Shown here one piece after another: positions 54,063 through 64,000 of a DNA stretch of 64,000 bases (its first letter is position 1; the number at the start of each line of letters is the position of its first letter). Both the position numbers and the translations under genes were made by a program. Source of the DNA: Escherichia phage vB_Eco_OMNI12. Under the pieces are notes generated by a model. The model did not search any database. It saw only the letters and a list, made by a program, of their open reading frames with translations, and was not told the origin of the DNA. The stretch is from the sequence record OL362041.1. One strand, written 5' to 3'.

Positions 54063-57000
54063 ATGGCCGAGATTAAAAGAAAGTTCAGAGCAGAAGATGG
54101 TCTGGACGCAGGTGGCGATAAAATAATCAACGTAGCTTTAGCTGATCGTACCGTAGGAACTGACGGTGTTAACGTTGATTACTTAATTCAAGAAAACACA
54201 GTTCAGCAATATGATCCAACTCGTGGATATTTAAAAGATTTTGTAATCATTTATAATAATCGTTTTTGGGCAGCAACGGATAATATTCCAAAACCTGCTG
54301 GAAATTTTAATAGAATTCGTTGGAAAGCATTACGTACTGATGCCGTATATACAACCGTATCATCTGGACCATATCAATTAAAATCCGGAGAAGCAATTTC
54401 AGTAGATACATCAGTTGGCAATGACATTGAGTTTACTTTACCACCTTCTCCGCTTGATGGAGAAACCGTAATAATTCAAGATATCGGTGGAAAACCTGGC
54501 ATAAATCAGGTTAAAATAAATTCTTCAAATCAGAGTATTGTCAATTTTAGAGGTGAACAAGTACGTTCAGTTTTAATGACTCATCCAAAGTCACAGATGA
54601 TATTCATTTTTAATAATCGTTTGTGGCAAATGTATGTTGCTGATTATAGCAGAGAAGCTGCGATTGTTACTCCATCGACTGCGTATCAAGCACAATCTAA
54701 TGATTTTATCGTACGTAGATTTACTTCTGCTGCACCAATTAATGTTAAACTTCCGAGATTTGCTAATCATGGCGATATTATTAATTTCGTCGATTTGGAC
54801 AAATTAAATCCACTTTATCATACAATTGTTACTACATACGATGAAACAACTTCAGTACAAGAAGTTGGAACTCATTCCATTGAAGGTCGTACATCGATTG
54901 ATGGTTTCTTAATGTATGATGATAATGAAAAATTGTGGAGATTGTTTGACGGGGATAGTAAAGCACGTTTACGTATTATAACAACTAATTCTAGTATTCG
55001 TCCAAATGAAGAAGTTATGGTATTTGGAGCGAATAACGGAACAACCCAAACAATTGAACTTCAGCTTCCAACTGATATTTCTATTGGTGATACTGTTAAA
55101 ATTTCCATGAATTACATGAGAAAAGGACAAACAGTTAAAATCAAAGCTGCTGGTGAAGATAAAATTGCTTCTTCAGTTCAATTGCTGCAATTCCCAAAAC
55201 GTTCAGAATATCCGCCTGAAGCTGAATGGGTAACAGTTCAAGAATTAGTTTTTAATGGTGAAACTAATTATGTTCCAGTTTTACAACTTGCTTATATAGA
55301 AGATTCTGATGGAAAATACTGGGTTGTACAGCAAAACGTTCCAACTGTAGAAAGAGTAGACTCTTTAAATGCTTCTACTAGAGCAAGATTAGGCGTAATT
55401 GCTTTAGCTACGCAAGCTCAAGCAAATGCTGATTTAGAAAATTCTCCACAAAAAGAATTGGCAATTACTCCAGAAACGTTAGCTAATCGTACTGCTACAG
55501 AAACTCGCAGAGGTATTGCAAGAATAGCAACTACTGCTCAAGTGAATCAGAACACCACATTCTCTTTTGCAGATGACCTTATCATCACTCCTAAAAAGCT
55601 GAATGAAAGAACTGCTACAGAAACTCGCAGAGGTGTCGCTGAAATTGCTACGCAGCAGGAAACTAATACAGGTACTGATGATACTACAATCATTACTCCT
55701 AAAAAGCTTCAAGCTCGCCAAGGTTCTGAATCATTATCTGGTATTGTAACTTTTGTATCTACCGCAGGAGCTACTCCAGCTTCTAGTCGTGAATTAAATG
55801 GTACGAATGTTTATAATAAAAACACTAATAATTTAGTTGTTTCACCTAAAGCTTTGGATCAGTATAAAGCTACTCCAACGCAACAAGGCGCAGTAATTTT
55901 AGCAGTTGAAAGTGAAGTAATTGCTGGACAAAGCCAAGAAGGATGGGCAAATGCGGTTGTAACACCAGAAACGTTACATAAAAAGACATCAACTGATGGA
56001 AGAATTGGTTTAATTGAAATTGCTACGCAAAGCGAAGTTAATACAGGAACTGATTATACTCGCGCAGTCACTCCTAAAACTTTAAATGACCGTAGAGCAA
56101 CTGAAAGTTTAAGTGGTATAGCTGAAATTGCTACACAGGTTGAATTCGACGCAGGCGTCGACGATACTCGTATCTCTACACCATTAAAAATTAAAACCAG
56201 ATTTAATAGTACTGATCGTACTTCTGTTGTTGCTCTATCTGGATTAGTTGAATCAGGAACTCTCTGGGACCATTATACCCTTAATATTCTTGAAGCAAAT
56301 GAGACACAGCGTGGTACACTTCGTGTAGCTACACAAGTTGAAGCTGCTGCAGGAACATTAGATAATGTTTTAATAACTCCTAAAAAGCTTTTAGGTACTA
56401 AATCTACCGAATCGCAAGAAGGTGTTATTAAAGTTGCAACTCAGTCTGAAACTGTGACTGGAACGTCAGCAAATACTGCTGTATCTCCAAAAAATTTAAA
56501 ATGGATTGTACAGAGTGAACCTACTTGGGCAGCTACTACTTTGGTAAGAGGTTTTGTTAAAACTTCATCTGGTTCAATTACATTCGTTGGTAATGATACG
56601 GTAGGTTCAACACAGTCATTAGAATTATATGAGAAAAATAGCTATGCAGTATCGCCATATGAATTAAACCGCGTATTAGCAAATTATTTGCCGTTAAAAG
56701 CAAAAGCTGTAGATAGTAATTTATTAGATGGTCTAGATTCGCTCCAGTTCATTCGTAGGGACATTGCACAAACAGTTAATGGTTCACTAACCTTAACCCA
56801 ACAAACGAATCTGAGTGCCCCTCTTGTATCATCTAGTACTGCTACATTCGGTGGATCAGTTTCAGCAAATAGTACATTAACTATTTCTAATACTGGAACG
56901 GCAACTCGTCTGATTTTTGAGAAAGGACCTCAAACTGGAACAAACCCAGCTCAAACGATGACAGTCAGAGTGTGGGGAAATCAATTTAGTGGGGAATCAG

Positions 57001-57932
57001 ACACAACACGTTCTACCGTATTTGAAGTTAGTGATGAAACGTCTAGTCATTTTTATTCTCAGCGTAATAAAGCTGGAAATATAACATTTAATATCAACGG
57101 TACAGTAACACCGATAAATGTTAATGCTTCAGGAACATTGAATGCAAATGGTGTAGCAACATTTGGTAATTCAGTCACTGCAACTGGTGAAATTATTTCT
57201 CGAAGCGCAAATGCTTTCCGTGCTATTAGCGGAAATTATGGTTTCATTGTTCGCAATGACGGGTCAGTAACGAATTTTATGCTTACTGCATCGGGTGATC
57301 AGACTGGCGGATTTAATGGATTGCGTCCTTTAGCTATTAATAATGCATCTGGCCAAGTAACGATTGGTGAAAGCTTAATCATTGCAAAAGGTGCTACTAT
57401 AAGTTCGGGTGGTTTGACTGTTAACTCGAGAATTCGTTCTCAGGGTACTAAAACCTCTGATTTATATACCCGTGCGCCAACATCTGATACAGTAGGATTC
57501 TGGTCAATCGATATTAATGATTCAGCCACTTATAACCAGTTCCCGGGTTATTTTAAAATGGTTGAAAAAACTAATGAAGTGACTGGACTTCCATACTTAG
57601 AACGTGGTGAAGAAGTTAAATCTCCTGGTACATTGACTCAGTTTGGTAACACACTTGATTCACTTTACCAAGATTGGATTACTTATCCAACGACCCCAGA
57701 AGCACGTACCACTCGCTGGACACGTACATGGCAGAAAACCAAAAACTCTTGGTCAAGTTTTGTTCAGGTATTTGACGGAGGTAACCCTCCTCAACCTTCA
57801 GATATAGGAGCGATCCCATCTGATAATGGAATAATAGGTAATCTTACTATTCGCGATTTCTTGCGAATTGGTAATGTTCGCATTATTCCTGACCCAGTGA
57901 ATAAAACTGTTAAATTTGAGTGGATTGAATAA
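54063..57932 (+). CDS. 34: long tail fibre proximal subunit
   Basis: 1289 aa as T4 gp34; late promoter at 54021. Confidence 0.9.
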   Translation: MAEIKRKFRAEDGLDAGGDKIINVALADRTVGTDGVNVDYLIQENTVQQYDPTRGYLKDFVIIYNNRFWAATDNIPKPAGNFNRIRWKALRTDAVYTTVSSGPYQLKSGEAISVDTSVGNDIEFTLPPSPLDGETVIIQDIGGKPGINQVKINSSNQSIVNFRGEQVRSVLMTHPKSQMIFIFNNRLWQMYVADYSREAAIVTPSTAYQAQSNDFIVRRFTSAAPINVKLPRFANHGDIINFVDLDKLNPLYHTIVTTYDETTSVQEVGTHSIEGRTSIDGFLMYDDNEKLWRLFDGDSKARLRIITTNSSIRPNEEVMVFGANNGTTQTIELQLPTDISIGDTVKISMNYMRKGQTVKIKAAGEDKIASSVQLLQFPKRSEYPPEAEWVTVQELVFNGETNYVPVLQLAYIEDSDGKYWVVQQNVPTVERVDSLNASTRARLGVIALATQAQANADLENSPQKELAITPETLANRTATETRRGIARIATTAQVNQNTTFSFADDLIITPKKLNERTATETRRGVAEIATQQETNTGTDDTTIITPKKLQARQGSESLSGIVTFVSTAGATPASSRELNGTNVYNKNTNNLVVSPKALDQYKATPTQQGAVILAVESEVIAGQSQEGWANAVVTPETLHKKTSTDGRIGLIEIATQSEVNTGTDYTRAVTPKTLNDRRATESLSGIAEIATQVEFDAGVDDTRISTPLKIKTRFNSTDRTSVVALSGLVESGTLWDHYTLNILEANETQRGTLRVATQVEAAAGTLDNVLITPKKLLGTKSTESQEGVIKVATQSETVTGTSANTAVSPKNLKWIVQSEPTWAATTLVRGFVKTSSGSITFVGNDTVGSTQSLELYEKNSYAVSPYELNRVLANYLPLKAKAVDSNLLDGLDSLQFIRRDIAQTVNGSLTLTQQTNLSAPLVSSSTATFGGSVSANSTLTISNTGTATRLIFEKGPQTGTNPAQTMTVRVWGNQFSGESDTTRSTVFEVSDETSSHFYSQRNKAGNITFNINGTVTPINVNASGTLNANGVATFGNSVTATGEIISRSANAFRAISGNYGFIVRNDGSVTNFMLTASGDQTGGFNGLRPLAINNASGQVTIGESLIIAKGATISSGGLTVNSRIRSQGTKTSDLYTRAPTSDTVGFWSIDINDSATYNQFPGYFKMVEKTNEVTGLPYLERGEEVKSPGTLTQFGNTLDSLYQDWITYPTTPEARTTRWTRTWQKTKNSWSSFVQVFDGGNPPQPSDIGAIPSDNGIIGNLTIRDFLRIGNVRIIPDPVNKTVKFEWIE

Positions 57933-57940
57933 GAGGTATT

Positions 57941-59056
57941 ATGGAAAAATTTATGGCAGAGTTTGGACAAGGATATGTCCAAACGCCATTTTTATCGGAA
58001 AGCAATTCAGTAAGATATAAAATAAGCATAGCGGGTTCTTGCCCGCTTTCTACTGCGGGGCCATATGTTAAATTTCAGGATAATCCCGTTGGAAATCAAA
58101 CATTTAGTGCAGGTCTTCATTTAAGAGTTTTTGACCCTTCTACGGGAGCATTAGTTGATAGCAAGTCATATGCTTTTTCTGCTTCAAACAATACAACATC
58201 TGCCGCTTTTGTCAGTTTCATGAATTCTTTGTCAAACAATAGACTTGTTGCTATATTAACTAGCGGAAAGGTTAATTTTCCTCCTGAAGTGGTATCTTGG
58301 TTAAGGGGAGCAGGAACTTCAGTTTTTCCATCAGATTCAGTATTGTCAAGATTTGACGTATCATATGCTGCTTTTTATACTTCTTCTAAAAGAGCTATTG
58401 CATTAGAGCATGTTAAACTAAGTAATAGAAAAAGCACAGATGATTATCAAACTATTTTAGATGTTGTATTTGATAGTTTAGAAGACGTCGGAGCGACAGG
58501 ATTTCCAAAAAGAACTTATGAAAGTGTCGAGCAATTCATGTCAGCAGTTGGTGGAACTAATAACGAAATTGCGCGATTGCCAACTTCAGCTGCTATAAGT
58601 AAACTTTCTGACTATAATTTAATTCCTGGTGATGTTCTTTATCTTAAAGCACAGTTATATGCTGATGCTGATTTACTTGATCTTGGAACTACAAACATAT
58701 CCATTCGTTTTTATGATGCATCAAATGGATATATTTCCTCTACCCAAGCTGAGTTTACTGGGCAAGCTGGGTCTTGGGAATTAAAAGAAGACTATGTAGT
58801 TGTTCCTGAAAATGCAGTAGGATTTACGATATATGCACAAAGAACTGCCCAAGCAGGTCAAGGCGGCATGAGAAATTTAAGCTTTTCTGAAGTATCAAGA
58901 AATGGCGGCATTTCAAAACCTGCCGAATTTGGCGTCAACGGTATTCGCGTTAATTATGTCTGCGAATCGGCTTCACCTCCAGATATAATGGTACTTCCTA
59001 CACAAGCCTCTTCTAAAAATGGCAAAGTGTTTGGACAGGAATTTAGAGAAGTTTAA
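57941..59056 (+). CDS. 35: long tail fibre hinge protein
   Basis: 371 aa; order 34-35-36-37. Confidence 0.85.
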   Translation: MEKFMAEFGQGYVQTPFLSESNSVRYKISIAGSCPLSTAGPYVKFQDNPVGNQTFSAGLHLRVFDPSTGALVDSKSYAFSASNNTTSAAFVSFMNSLSNNRLVAILTSGKVNFPPEVVSWLRGAGTSVFPSDSVLSRFDVSYAAFYTSSKRAIALEHVKLSNRKSTDDYQTILDVVFDSLEDVGATGFPKRTYESVEQFMSAVGGTNNEIARLPTSAAISKLSDYNLIPGDVLYLKAQLYADADLLDLGTTNISIRFYDASNGYISSTQAEFTGQAGSWELKEDYVVVPENAVGFTIYAQRTAQAGQGGMRNLSFSEVSRNGGISKPAEFGVNGIRVNYVCESASPPDIMVLPTQASSKNGKVFGQEFREV

Positions 59057-59118: not shown

Positions 59119-59769
59119 ATGGCTGATTTAAAAGTAGGTTCAACTGTAGGTGGATCTGTCATTTGGCATCAAGGAAATTTTCCATTGAATTCAGCCGGTG
59201 ACGATGTACTCTACAAATCATTTAAAATATATTCAGAATATAATAAACCGCAGGCAGCTGATAACGATTTCGTTTCTAAAGCTAATGGTGGTACTTACGC
59301 CGGTCCAATTACTATTAATTACGGGGTAAATAGTTATCTTCAATTAAGTAATAATGAAACCCCTATCCGAATTCGTTCTGGTGGCGGCACTGGTAATACT
59401 CTTGTAGTTGGCGGCTCTTCCGGTGGTATTAGTTTTAGACCTGCAGGTAGTGAAATCACTACTGGACAAATTACTATTACGCCAGAAGGTTTGACAACAT
59501 TTACCAGGGCTGTAACGGCTCCATCGGTAACTGTTACATCTACTCCTTCCGCAGCATCTGATGTTACTCGCAAAGATTATGTTGATGGAGCAATAAATAC
59601 TGTTACAGCAAATGCAAACTCTAGGGTATTACGCTCTGGAGACACTATGACAGGAAATTTAACTGCGCCAAACCTTTTTTCACAGAATCCTGCATCTCAA
59701 CCTTCACACGTTCCACGATTTGACCAAATCGTAATTAAGGATTCTGTTCAAGATTTCGGCTATTATTAA
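59119..59769 (+). CDS. 36: long tail fibre distal connector
   Basis: 216 aa; late promoter and terminator hairpin upstream. Confidence 0.85.
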
Positions 59770-59777
59770 GAGGACTT

Positions 59778-62744
59778 ATGGCTACTTTAAAACAAATACA
59801 ATTTAAAAGAAGCAAAACTGCAGGAGCACGTCCTGCCGCTTCAGTATTAGCCGAAGGTGAATTGGCTATAAACTTAAAAGATAAAACAATTTTCACAAAA
59901 GATGACTCAGGTAGTGTTATAGAATTAGGTTTAAAATATGGAGGAACTATAAATGGGTCTTTAGAGGTTACAGAAAATATAACTGGAACTTTAATTGGAA
60001 ATTCTAGCACAGCTACTAAATTGCAAACACCTAGGAAAATTAATGGTATATCTTTTGATGGGTCAAAGGACATTACCTTAACTCCATCTGACATAAATGT
60101 CAATAGCACAACATTTATAAAAAATAATGGCGAATTACCTACTGATGCTAATTTAGATACGTATGGGCCCATTGAAGAATATCTTGGTGTTTGGTCGAAA
60201 TCTACTTCAACAAATGCGCAACCAGCAAATAAATTCCCAGAAGAAAATGCCGTAGGTGTACTAGAAGTGTTTGTGGCCGGCCAATTTGCTGGCACTCAGC
60301 GTTATACTGTAAGATCTGGTAACGTCTATATTCGTTCCTTATCTGCTAAATGGAATGGCGTCGATGGTCCATGGGGTGTGTGGCGTAATGTTCAAGCGTC
60401 AACTCGTCCACTTTCACAAACGATTGACCTTGATAGCTTGGGAGAATTAGAACATTGCGGCTTATGGCGAAACAGTTCAAGCGCAATCGCATCATTTGAT
60501 CGCCATTATCCAGAAGAAGGATCAGCCGCACAAGGATTTTTAGAAATATTTGAAGGTGGTTTATACACGAGAACTCAGCGTTATACTACCCGAATGGGTG
60601 TTGTATATGTTCGTTGTCTTGCTGGTGCATGGGATCCAGAAGCTCCGAATTGGGGACCGTGGCAACAAGTAGGTATGGTTACTCCCAACACATTCTATGA
60701 CGGGGATCTTAATAATTTTCGTTCTCCTGGCTTATATAATATTTTAGGCACTGATGCCGTTATTAACCGTCCAGTTGCAGAAGGTGTTCCGGTTGAGATG
60801 ACCGGATTGCTTGAGGTTAAACAGCGTGCTTCCGGTGCCGCTATTTTCCAACGTTTCACTACCGCAGGAACGGGTGCAACTACGCGATCTCGCGTGTTTG
60901 AACGTGCGATGACAAATAACATCTGGGGAAATTGGTACGAAGTATATACGTCCTATTCTATGCCGATCACTCTGGGTATGGGTGGTGTTAAATCTCAATT
61001 AGCGGAGCTAGACTGGCAAACCTTTGATTTTGTCCCTGGTAGTATGTTTAGTGTTCCTTTGAACAAAATAAAGAATATGCCAGCAAATATGGATTGGGGG
61101 ACGATTGACGGAAACTTGGTTATGTTTTCTGTCGGTCCTAGCGAACATACCGGAACGGGTCGAACTGTTCAAGTGTGGCGCGGTACTGTATCTCAGGCGA
61201 ACTATCGTTATTTCGTTGTTCGTATCGCTGGTAATCCAGGAAGTAGGACTAATACTTGTCGTCGTGTTGTTGTGGAAGATGGTCGCCACACATGGACAGC
61301 ACAGCAAGATTTTAATGGTGCTGTCAACTTTGGTGGTTCGACAACTTTTAAGTCCACTACAACTTTTAACACAGAAGTTAAATTCCGTTCATCCAATGCA
61401 TTTAAAATGTATGGCGGTAATTTTGGCACAATTTTCCGTAATGATGGTGAAAGTCTTTATATTCTTTCCACCGACGAAGATGATCAAGATGGAAACTTTA
61501 ATACAAATAGACCTTTCCGTTATGAATTAAGAACTGGTGATGTTACTTTAGGTGGTACTAGTGGTGCTAACGTTTTAAAATTAAAACGTGATTCTCTCAC
61601 CGCATTTTTTGGTGGTGATATTAACATGAAAGGCTTGATGACTTTTGACGCCGGACGTTTAGGATCACGAGATTATTTTAAATTTAACCATTGGGGTGAT
61701 AGTAATAATGCGCGCGATAACATTATTCAGTTAGAAGACAGCAAAGGCGTTCATTTTTCCACTGAACGTACTTTAGCGACAGGTGCAATTAAGACTAAAT
61801 TTTTTGGTGAAATTGAATCCGATGGTAAATTGATTATTAAACGTCCGGGCGATTCTATTGTATTATCAACAACTGCTAGTAATTCTTTGCATATTCGCGG
61901 TGATATAGACGGGACTGGTAACTGGTATATTGGTAAAGGTGGTGCTGATAATGGATTAGCGTTCTATAGTTATGCTACTAATGCTGGTGTATACATTACA
62001 AACGCAGGAGATATCTCGCTAAGTCCAAAGGGTGCCGAAATGGCTCAGGTCAATAACGTTCGATTATATGTTCATGGTGAACGTTGGACCGCTAGTCAAC
62101 CAGGTGATTGGGGCAGTCAGTGGCAAGTGGAAGCGCCAATATTCGTCGATCATGGTTATGTTGGACCAGATAGCTATTATCCAATTATTAAAGGAAGAAG
62201 TGTAGTCACCAATCAAGGGTTTGTAACTGCCGTCGATCTTGGTATTCGTCGTGTCCCTAACAATTGGGGGCAAGCAATTATTCGTGTTGGATCTGCAGAG
62301 GCATCGCCAGCGGCTGGACACCCTAACGCGGTATTTGAATTTCATTACGACGGTACTTTCTATTCTCCTGGTAATGGTAACTTTAACGATGTGTATATTC
62401 GTTCCGATGGTCGTCTTAAGATTAATAAAAAAGAGCTAGAAAACGGAGCACTTGAAAAAGTATGTCGACTGAAAGTTTATACATACGATAAGGTTAAGTC
62501 TATTAAAGATCGTAGTGTTATTAAACGTGAAGTTGGTATTATTGCTCAGGATCTTGAAAAAGAATTATCAGAAGCTGTATCTAAAGTTGAAGTTGATGGA
62601 TCTGATGTTCTGACAATTTCTAACTCCGCTGTAAATGCTCTTTTAATTAAGGCTATCCAAGAAATGAGCGAAGAAATTAAAGAATTGAAAACGCCTTTCT
62701 TCACTAAAATTGCTCGCAAAATTGGTAAATACTTTAAATTCTAA
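59778..62744 (+). CDS. 37: long tail fibre distal subunit with C-terminal intramolecular-chaperone-like domain
   Basis: 988 aa; C-terminus SDGRLK ... [11 protein letters not shown] resembles the S74-type chaperone domain of other fibre proteins. Confidence 0.85.
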
Positions 62745-62750
62745 TAACAA

Positions 62751-62763
62751 GGGGCATTGCCCC
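62751..62763 (+). promoter_or_regulatory. hairpin between genes 37 and 38 adjacent to the gene 38 SD
   Basis: GGGG-CATTG-CCCC followed by TTT GGAG. Confidence 0.5.
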
Positions 62764-62777
62764 TTTGGAGATAAATT

Positions 62778-63578
62778 ATGGCAGTAGTTGGTGTTCCTGG
62801 TTGGATTGGAAGTTCATCCGTAAATGAAACAGGGCAACGATGGATGAGTCAAGCGGCTGGTCAATTAAGATTGGGTGTTCCTTGCTGGATGAGTCAATTT
62901 GCAGGTCGCTCGCGAGAAATTATTCACACGCTTGGAGCAGACCATAACTTCAATGGTCAATGGTTCCGAGATAGATGTTTTGAGGCAGGTAGTGCACCTA
63001 TAGTGTTTAATATTACAGGTGATTTAGTATCATATTCTAAAGATGTTCCTTTATTCTTCATGTACGGGGATACGCCTAATGAATATGTTGTTCTTAATAT
63101 TCATGGCGGTGTTCATATGTGGGGTCGTGGTGGTAATGGTGGATACACTCACTCAGGAGGCGACGGTAACGGTACACAAGGCGGTCATGTTATTCAAAAT
63201 GATATCGGTGGACGGCTTCGTATTTGGAACTACGGTGTTATAGCTGCTGGCGGTGGCGGCGGTGGTGGTATTGCATATCGTCCACACTCAGGGGCAAACT
63301 GGCAAGATATCGGTGGCGGTGGTGGTCGACCTTTCGGTGCCGCGGGCGGTGGCGGTTATTCCGGTGGTGCTGCTTCGTATGAAGGTCCGGGTGGTGGTTA
63401 TGACTATGGTAACGCACACTCCGGCGCAGGTGGTAATGCTGGTGCTGCTGGTCAGAATGCATGGTCTGACGGCGGTAAAGTTCTTAAAGTTGGTGTTGGT
63501 GGTGCGTCTGGTCATGCAGTGTTTGGGTCTTCTCCAACTTGGGGTGCTGTTGGAACAATTTACGGACCAAGAGTATAA
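62778..63578 (+). CDS. 38: T2-type receptor-recognising adhesin gp38 with glycine-rich motifs
   Basis: 266 aa; poly-Gly motifs ([25 protein letters not shown]) separating short variable segments. Confidence 0.8.
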
Positions 63579-63608: not shown

Positions 63609-64000
63609 ATGGCAGCACCTAGAATATCATTTTCGCCCTCTGATATTCTGTTTGGTGTTCTAGATCGCTTGTTCAAAGATAACGCTACCGGGAAGGTTCT
63701 TGCTTCCCGAGTAGCTGTCGTAATTCTTTTATTTATGATGGCGATTGTTTGGTATAGGGGAGATAGTTTCTTTGAGTACTATAAGCAATCAAAGTATGAA
63801 ACATACAGTGAAATTATTGAAAAGGAAAGAAATGCACGCTTTGAATCTGTCGCCCTGGAACAACTCCAGATAGTTCATATATCATCTGAGGCAGACTTTA
63901 GTGCGGTGTATTCTTTCCGCCCTAAAAACTTAAACTATTTTGTTGATATTATAGCATATGAAGGAAAATTACCTTCAACAATAAGTGAAAAATCACTTGG
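63609..64000 (+). CDS. t: holin t, N-terminal part (3' end outside window)
   Basis: Hand-translated MAAPRISFSPSDILFGVLDRLFKDNATGKVLASRVAVVILLF matches T4 holin; frame open to window end. Confidence 0.85.
   Translation, partial: MAAPRISFSPSDILFGVLDRLFKDNATGKVLASRVAVVILLFMMAIVWYRGDSFFEYYKQSKYETYSEIIEKERNARFESVALEQLQIVHISSEADFSAVYSFRPKNLNYFVDIIAYEGKLPSTISEKSL

Follow-up and report, generated by a model that had tools for sequence, protein, structure and literature searches.

The distal subunit of the long tail fibre, gp37, as encoded in a 64,000-nt stretch of Escherichia phage vB_Eco_OMNI12 (sequence record OL362041.1; the whole stretch is called the window below), ends in an intramolecular chaperone domain of the Peptidase_S74 / CIMCD / ICA family that takes up residues 876-988. 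We consider it very probable that this domain folds the fibre tip, cleaves itself off and leaves, so that the tip can take its gp38 cap. An earlier sequence-only reading of the window had proposed that the last ~110 residues of gp37 resemble an endosialidase-type chaperone; the resemblance is borne out by a 113-residue domain that scores 42.2 bits with PF13884 (Peptidase_S74, 'Chaperone of endosialidase') against a curated Pfam cut-off of 22 bits, and the three peptide strings which that reading had cited are all present in the gp37 translation. The range that it assigned, 62400-62744, holds except at its edges, in that 62400 belongs to the codon of Arg875, one before the domain start at Ser876, and 62744 is the end of the stop codon. 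The gene, the domain and the Pfam match are placed as follows.

59778..62744, plus strand: gene 37, long tail fibre distal subunit precursor (988 aa, 108.5 kDa; from the open reading frame list and PHROG 1699).
62403..62741, plus strand: complete C-terminal intramolecular chaperone domain, predicted to be released (residues 876-988, 113 aa, 12.8 kDa, pI 9.3).
62403..62579, plus strand: Pfam Peptidase_S74 match (residues 876-934, 42.2 bits, profile positions 1-57 of 58).

The domain forms the extreme C-terminus of the distal fibre subunit, being the last 113 of its 988 residues, from Ser876 to Phe988 (62739-62741). A profile search against Peptidase_S74 and a structure prediction had been suggested as checks on the sequence-only reading, and the search returned the S74 match at E=1e-10 with the whole of gp37 and at E=3.5e-12 with the C-terminal fragment alone. 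Many PHROG tail-fibre and tail-spike families align along the same C-terminal stretch, and gp37 as a whole matches PHROG 1699, 'long tail fiber protein distal subunit', at E=1.5e-216. A purpose-built profile from 108 homologues detects the gp37 reading frame at E=1.6e-30, and the same profile, run across all six frames of the window, found no second S74 domain, e.g. in the other fibre genes. By tblastn, the 113-residue domain is present in 1247 phage records; the isolated phage vB_EcoM_ESCO58 has it with 100% identity, and it is presumably functional for this reason.

The residues expected to carry out the cleavage are found at the very start of the domain, directly after a short strand that would become the end of the mature fibre.

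62403..62420, plus strand: SDGRLK motif with the predicted catalytic dyad (from alignment to K1F and T5 and from conservation in 108 sequences).
62388..62402, plus strand: DVYIR, last strand of the predicted mature fibre, ending at P1 Arg875 (residues 871-875; predicted gp38 docking end).

We aligned gp37 with K1F, T5 and the S16 construct of 6F45, with gp37 of T2, T6, M1, RB43, phiAS4 and VH7D, and with a pneumococcal PblB-type protein; the K1F and T5 pb1 sequences were taken from genome records, in which the published numbering Ser911/Lys916 and Ser1264/Lys1269 was confirmed. In this alignment Ser876 (codon 62403-62405), the predicted nucleophile, with which the released fragment would begin, and Lys881 (codon 62418-62420), the predicted general base, fall on S911/K916 of the K1F endosialidase and S1264/K1269 of T5 pb1 with the Ser-x4-Lys spacing kept, and Ser876 shares its column with the cleavage-site serine of S16. 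A search with a single sequence gave mostly short, near-identical fragments; a profile search with the 11-sequence alignment gave 283 homologues, and 107 of these plus the query make up the 108-sequence conservation alignment. S876, D877, K881, G920, A923 and Q924 are invariant in all 108 sequences, while R879 is conserved in 96% and L880, along with several others, in at least 90%. The roles of the catalytic Ser and Lys in T5 were described by Garcia-Doval 2015 (PMC4690869), and the Ser/Lys dyad together with the folding-sensor concept is summarised in Li 2013 (PMC3742443).

The structure prediction was likewise in keeping with the sequence-only reading. An AlphaFold2 model of residues 836-988, built as a single chain from the 108-sequence alignment, reached a mean pLDDT of 81.6, with values >87 over most of the chaperone domain, and its elements follow one another as helix, two strands, helix, two strands and a 37-residue C-terminal helix.

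62622..62732, plus strand: long C-terminal helix, predicted to form a central trimeric coiled coil (residues 949-985; model helix H114-150).

When the model was compared with the PDB by Foldseek, the top nine matches were all chains of four ICA entries, namely the MyRF ICA 7DC3 (E=3e-5, TM 0.60-0.66), GA-1 3GUD, T5 pb1 4UW8 and K1F 3GW6. As modelled, the end of gp37 has the fold of the family, a small alpha/beta unit followed by a long coiled-coil helix.

The predicted junction reads NDVYIR875^S876DGRLKINKK (^ marks the cut), and cleavage there would yield an 875-residue mature subunit of 95.7 kDa and a basic fragment of 12.8 kDa. The DVYIR motif is identical in gp37 of T6, M1, RB43, phiAS4, RB9 and T4_ev240 and is NVYIR in T2, the junctions being NVYIR^SDIRLK in T2 (residue 1243), DVYIR^SDSRLK in T6 (882) and DLNVS^SDRRIKK in S16. 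By alignment to the last of these, Salem 2021 (Viruses 13:296, PMC7917993) predicted cleavage after DVYIR, and the same source states that the last 113 residues of S16 gp37 are autocleaved, with the gp38 docking surface exposed as a result. That T2 gp37 undergoes proteolytic processing has been known since 1986 (Drexler, Riede & Henning, J Mol Biol 191:267, as cited in the review PMC3157838), and according to that review the C-terminus of T6/T2 gp37 is first cleaved, after which gp38 caps it. T5 is cut between Thr1263 and Ser1264, and the protein functions only in its processed form (PMC4690869); the Ser/Lys mechanism is supported because the T5 S1264A mutant blocks cleavage. Autocleavage of the window gp37 is expected by analogy with T2, S16, T5 and K1F, and it is from homologues, too, that we infer the exact scissile bond, the dependence on the trimer, the release of the fragment and the docking of gp38.

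Drawing these lines together, we surmise that three nascent gp37 chains would associate via their chaperone domains, with the long C-terminal helices coming together as a trimeric coiled coil, and that this chaperone trimer would nucleate and register the folding of the beta-structured tip, starting from its C-terminal end. Once the tip is folded, the active site would be complete, and Lys881 would activate Ser876 for attack on the Arg875-Ser876 bond in each chain; in the S74 family the Ser meets the Lys only in the folded trimer, and an Arg of the neighbouring chain stabilises the oxyanion (PMC4690869, PMC3742443). The 113-residue fragment would then dissociate from an 875-residue mature subunit ending ...NDVYIR, and the exposed three-fold end would be capped by one copy of gp38, whose N-terminal three-helix bundle may insert one Trp per helix (W9, W22, W37) into a pocket of the gp37 trimer.

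Some features of the domain weigh against self-cleavage of this kind. The upstream sensor Arg of K1F and T5 (T5 Arg1250) aligns with Asn870 in gp37; across 104 homologues there is no conserved upstream Arg equivalent to T5 Arg1250, such residues being scattered at -11, -10, -9 or -1. In addition, Ser931 (62568-62570) stands in place of a Pro that is 95% conserved, turning LPEAV into LSEAV, and our structure model is a monomer, while the S74 active site forms in the trimer. Asn870 at the sensor position and Ser at 931 would suit an S74-like domain that is inactive, with gp37 present at full length in the virion and gp38 attached elsewhere or beside it, but we regard this state of affairs as very unlikely, since none of the Ser/Asp/Lys and G..AQ signature residues is lost, T2 gp37 shares the xVYIR^SDxRLK site and is processed (Drexler 1986, cited in PMC3157838), S16 is also without Arg at the K1F/T5 position and yet is reported to be autocleaved (PMC7917993), and the gp38 docking surface is exposed only after the chaperone is released (PMC7917993). 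Position 931 is Pro in T6 and M1 and the same Ser in ESCO58. As for the sensor, 26 of the 104 homologues have Arg at -1 and the DVYIR-type T-even gp37 have Arg at P1; Arg875 (P1) and Arg879 are candidates for the oxyanion/sensor residue in gp37. Because the sensor position is Asn870 in the window gp37 and DVYIR-type gp37 have a P1 Arg, completion of the active site may differ within the S74 family.

Cleavage near Arg875^Ser876 could also be the work of a separate phage or host protease rather than of the domain itself; the 1986 work on T2 established processing before any mechanism was known, and a trypsin-like protease could in principle cut after the P1 Arg. Homologous domains, however, cleave themselves when produced recombinantly, a single Ser-to-Ala change abolishes cleavage in T5 (PMC4690869), and the catalytic dyad is conserved in gp37, which leaves an external protease with very little probability in our estimate. 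That the similarity is a chance or compositional match, caused by coiled coil with no chaperone domain present, is already refuted by the Pfam match and the conservation over 108 sequences, and we give it practically no credence. Self-cleavage by the chaperone domain is the reading that we retain.

The sequence-only reading had also tied the domain to a T2-type arrangement, in which gp38 binds the processed tip, and had set it apart from T4-type gp37. Both parts agree with what we found downstream of gene 37 and in the reference phages.

62778..63578, plus strand: gene 38, T2/T6/S16-type tail-fibre adhesin (266 aa; Gp38_N E=3.2e-19, GP38 E=2.1e-68).

The product of this gene matches PHROG 2056, 'tail fiber protein; host specificity', and aligns with S16 gp38 (6f45_D, E=1.3e-43) and with the PP01 gp38 structure 9v85. 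In S16 the gp37 trimer has three equivalent pockets into which three tryptophans of gp38 insert (Dunne et al. 2018, PDB 6F45), and W9, W22 and W37 of the window gp38 align with these three docking tryptophans. Compared with T6 gp38, the window adhesin is 64% identical overall, the N-terminal attachment domain being almost identical and the Gly-rich and hypervariable segments divergent; it is 100% identical to the adhesin of ESCO58, a phage of avian-pathogenic E. coli. The arrangement with gp38 is of the T2 type, with a gene bearing Gp38_N and GP38 downstream and the three docking tryptophans conserved, while the fibre is T6-type by sequence: T6 gp37 matches the window gp37 along its full length with 88.6% identity, the resemblance to T2 gp37 is limited to the N-terminus and the last ~125 residues, and that to T4 gp37 is limited to the N-terminus (75% identity over residues 1-64).

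The difference from T4 is seen in both genes. Pfam places Peptidase_S74 in T2 gp37 (residues 1243-1300, 56.5 bits) and in T6 gp37 (882-940, 39.6 bits), as in the window protein, whereas a Pfam scan of T4 gp37, which has the same gene position, returned no Peptidase_S74, only Collar and Phage_fiber, and it is this tip itself that binds the receptor. T4 gp38, annotated as an assembly chaperone, gave no match in a Pfam scan and no similarity to the window gp38 by BLASTP; it is unrelated, separately encoded and not retained in the fibre. The chaperones of T4 gp37 also include gp57A. By the features of the T4 type, namely a Collar/Phage_fiber tip, no S74 and a T4-type gp38 chaperone, the window gp37 does not belong to it.

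Among known systems the closest at the junction are the T4-like fPS phages of Yersinia (Salem 2021, PMC7917993), in which DVYIR^SDGRLKI is identical to the window gp37 and the chaperone is likewise predicted to be cut between Arg and Ser, with the tip exposed for the gp38 adhesin; they differ as other isolates from other hosts, and their upstream shaft and tip sequences may differ. Salmonella phage S16 has a 113-residue C-terminal chaperone, autocleaved according to Dunne et al. 2018, and one gp38 that caps the trimer through three tryptophans, but its domain aligns with that of the window over 105 residues at a phmmer E-value of only 2.4e-4, its P1 residue is Ser rather than Arg, its last strand is DLNVS instead of DVYIR, and it is without the amphipathic tail described below. 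T2 and T6 gp37 share with the window protein the S74 domain, the xVYIR^SDxRLK junction and a gp38 adhesin that follows; T2 gp37 differs in being 1341 aa long, with 44% identity over the last ~125 residues and a chaperone of 99 residues without the amphipathic tail. The CIMCD of K1F (3GW6), GA-1 (3GUD) and T5 pb1 (4UW8) have a sequence identity to the window domain of only 9-22%; K1F and T5 carry long insertions ('tentacle' hairpins) that are absent from the window domain, and their mature tips bind the receptor directly, with no adhesin cap. More distant in function is the eukaryotic MYRF ICA (7DC3; 18-20% identity), which is no virion protein and serves to detach a transcription factor from the ER membrane.

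Our main finding adds nothing new to biology: the literature and Pfam already cover the domain family and how it works, its occurrence in T2/T6/S16-type gp37 and the exact cleavage-site sequence. For this phage, the domain explains how the receptor-binding tip is assembled without a separate gp38 chaperone in the style of T4, and why gp38 can serve as an exchangeable host-range adhesin. Its practical value is in annotation and engineering: constructs that swap fibres or adhesins must keep residues 876-988 for folding, even though these would be absent from the product, because mature gp37 is predicted to end at Arg875.

The released fragment ends in a short segment that sets the T6-type proteins apart.

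62691..62741, plus strand: basic amphipathic 17-residue tail at the end of the released fragment (residues 972-988, Pro-initiated).

The tail has a net charge of +5 and a hydrophobic moment of 0.72, a value reached by 66 of 10000 shuffles (0.66%). In gp37 of T6, M1, RB9 and T4_ev240 it hardly varies, including where the remainder of the domain has diverged; T2, S16, RB43, T5 and K1F do not have it. Of the 108 aligned sequences, 105 are without it, the three carriers being the window protein plus two close relatives. An analogous tail, KRPWWKKLLRL, is seen in Vibrio phage VH7D. We put forward, as an unlikely idea at this stage, that the released 12.8 kDa fragment of T6-type gp37 may have a role beyond folding the fibre, in which case the tail could anchor the freed fragment, or fibre assembly itself, at the membrane, or could recruit gp38 or gp57A for a hand-over at cleavage. 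More mundanely, the tail may be conserved only through its position in a block of DNA, ~62600-63080, which T-even phages use to recombine adhesin cassettes.

This block consists of the 3' half of the chaperone, an intergenic hairpin and the gp38 attachment domain. Its identity to RB9 and T4_ev240 stays at 88-97%, a single 60-nt bin being the exception (80% to T4_ev240), while the fibre-tip sequence just upstream is unrelated in these two phages, with 32-45% identity in most bins. The block looks like a conserved recombination cassette that pairs the end of gp37 with the N-terminus of gp38, and such a conserved block fits with published work (PMC3157838) in which subtypes of the gp37 C-terminus pair with subtypes of the gp38 N-terminus.

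62749..62765, plus strand: intergenic hairpin AAGGGGC-ATT-GCCCCTT with a 7-bp GC-rich stem.

The hairpin comes after the TAATAA double stop that ends gene 37 and before the GGAG ribosome-binding site (RBS) of gene 38, and the T2 record X04442 annotates the equivalent hairpin as a potential terminator/RBS stem-loop. We rejected it as a terminator in the window: a consensus scan made no call, the folding energy was unremarkable (z=-1.36), and there is no T-run.

A fibre with a T6-type tip and chaperone was also seen outside the window. Contig ABMKHH010000064.1 of the E. coli assembly GCA_031535085.1 (L014, 2542-6912) encodes a 1140-aa fibre in a siphovirus-like, non-T-even context that includes a Peptidase_S78-capsid fusion and a pb9-like distal tail protein. 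The distal 443 residues of this fibre are 68% identical to the window gp37, inclusive of the T6-type chaperone and tail. The fibre is followed by P0032, a 303-aa fusion of a gp38 attachment domain and the first Gly-rich motifs with a second fibre end and a DVYIR^SDRRLK chaperone domain; P0032 could be either a scar left by recombination or a genuine fibre protein of a branched or adaptor kind.

Gene 37 belongs to a T-even long-tail-fibre cluster on the plus strand that fills the last 10 kb of the window.

54063-57932, plus strand: gp34 (1289 aa).
57941-59056, plus strand: gp35.
59119-59769, plus strand: gp36.
From an ATG at 63610 past the window end, plus strand: a further open reading frame after gp38, in the place of gene t (holin) in T4, T6 and ESCO58.

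The final 24 kb of the window are ~96% identical to several Tequatrovirus coliphages, e.g. G29, ES12 and DalCa; the g37-g38 segment has 93.8% identity to Shigella phage Sf21, and from ~62000 on the window is essentially identical to ESCO58. The shaft of the window fibre is nearer to T6 and Sf21 while gp38 is the ESCO58 adhesin, and we read the fibre locus as mosaic on this account. Two reading frames on the opposite strand, 62546-62719 (57 aa) and 62064-62345 (93 aa), were set aside as probable shadows of the gp37 frame, because the latter has strong Pfam and PHROG homology over the same stretch.

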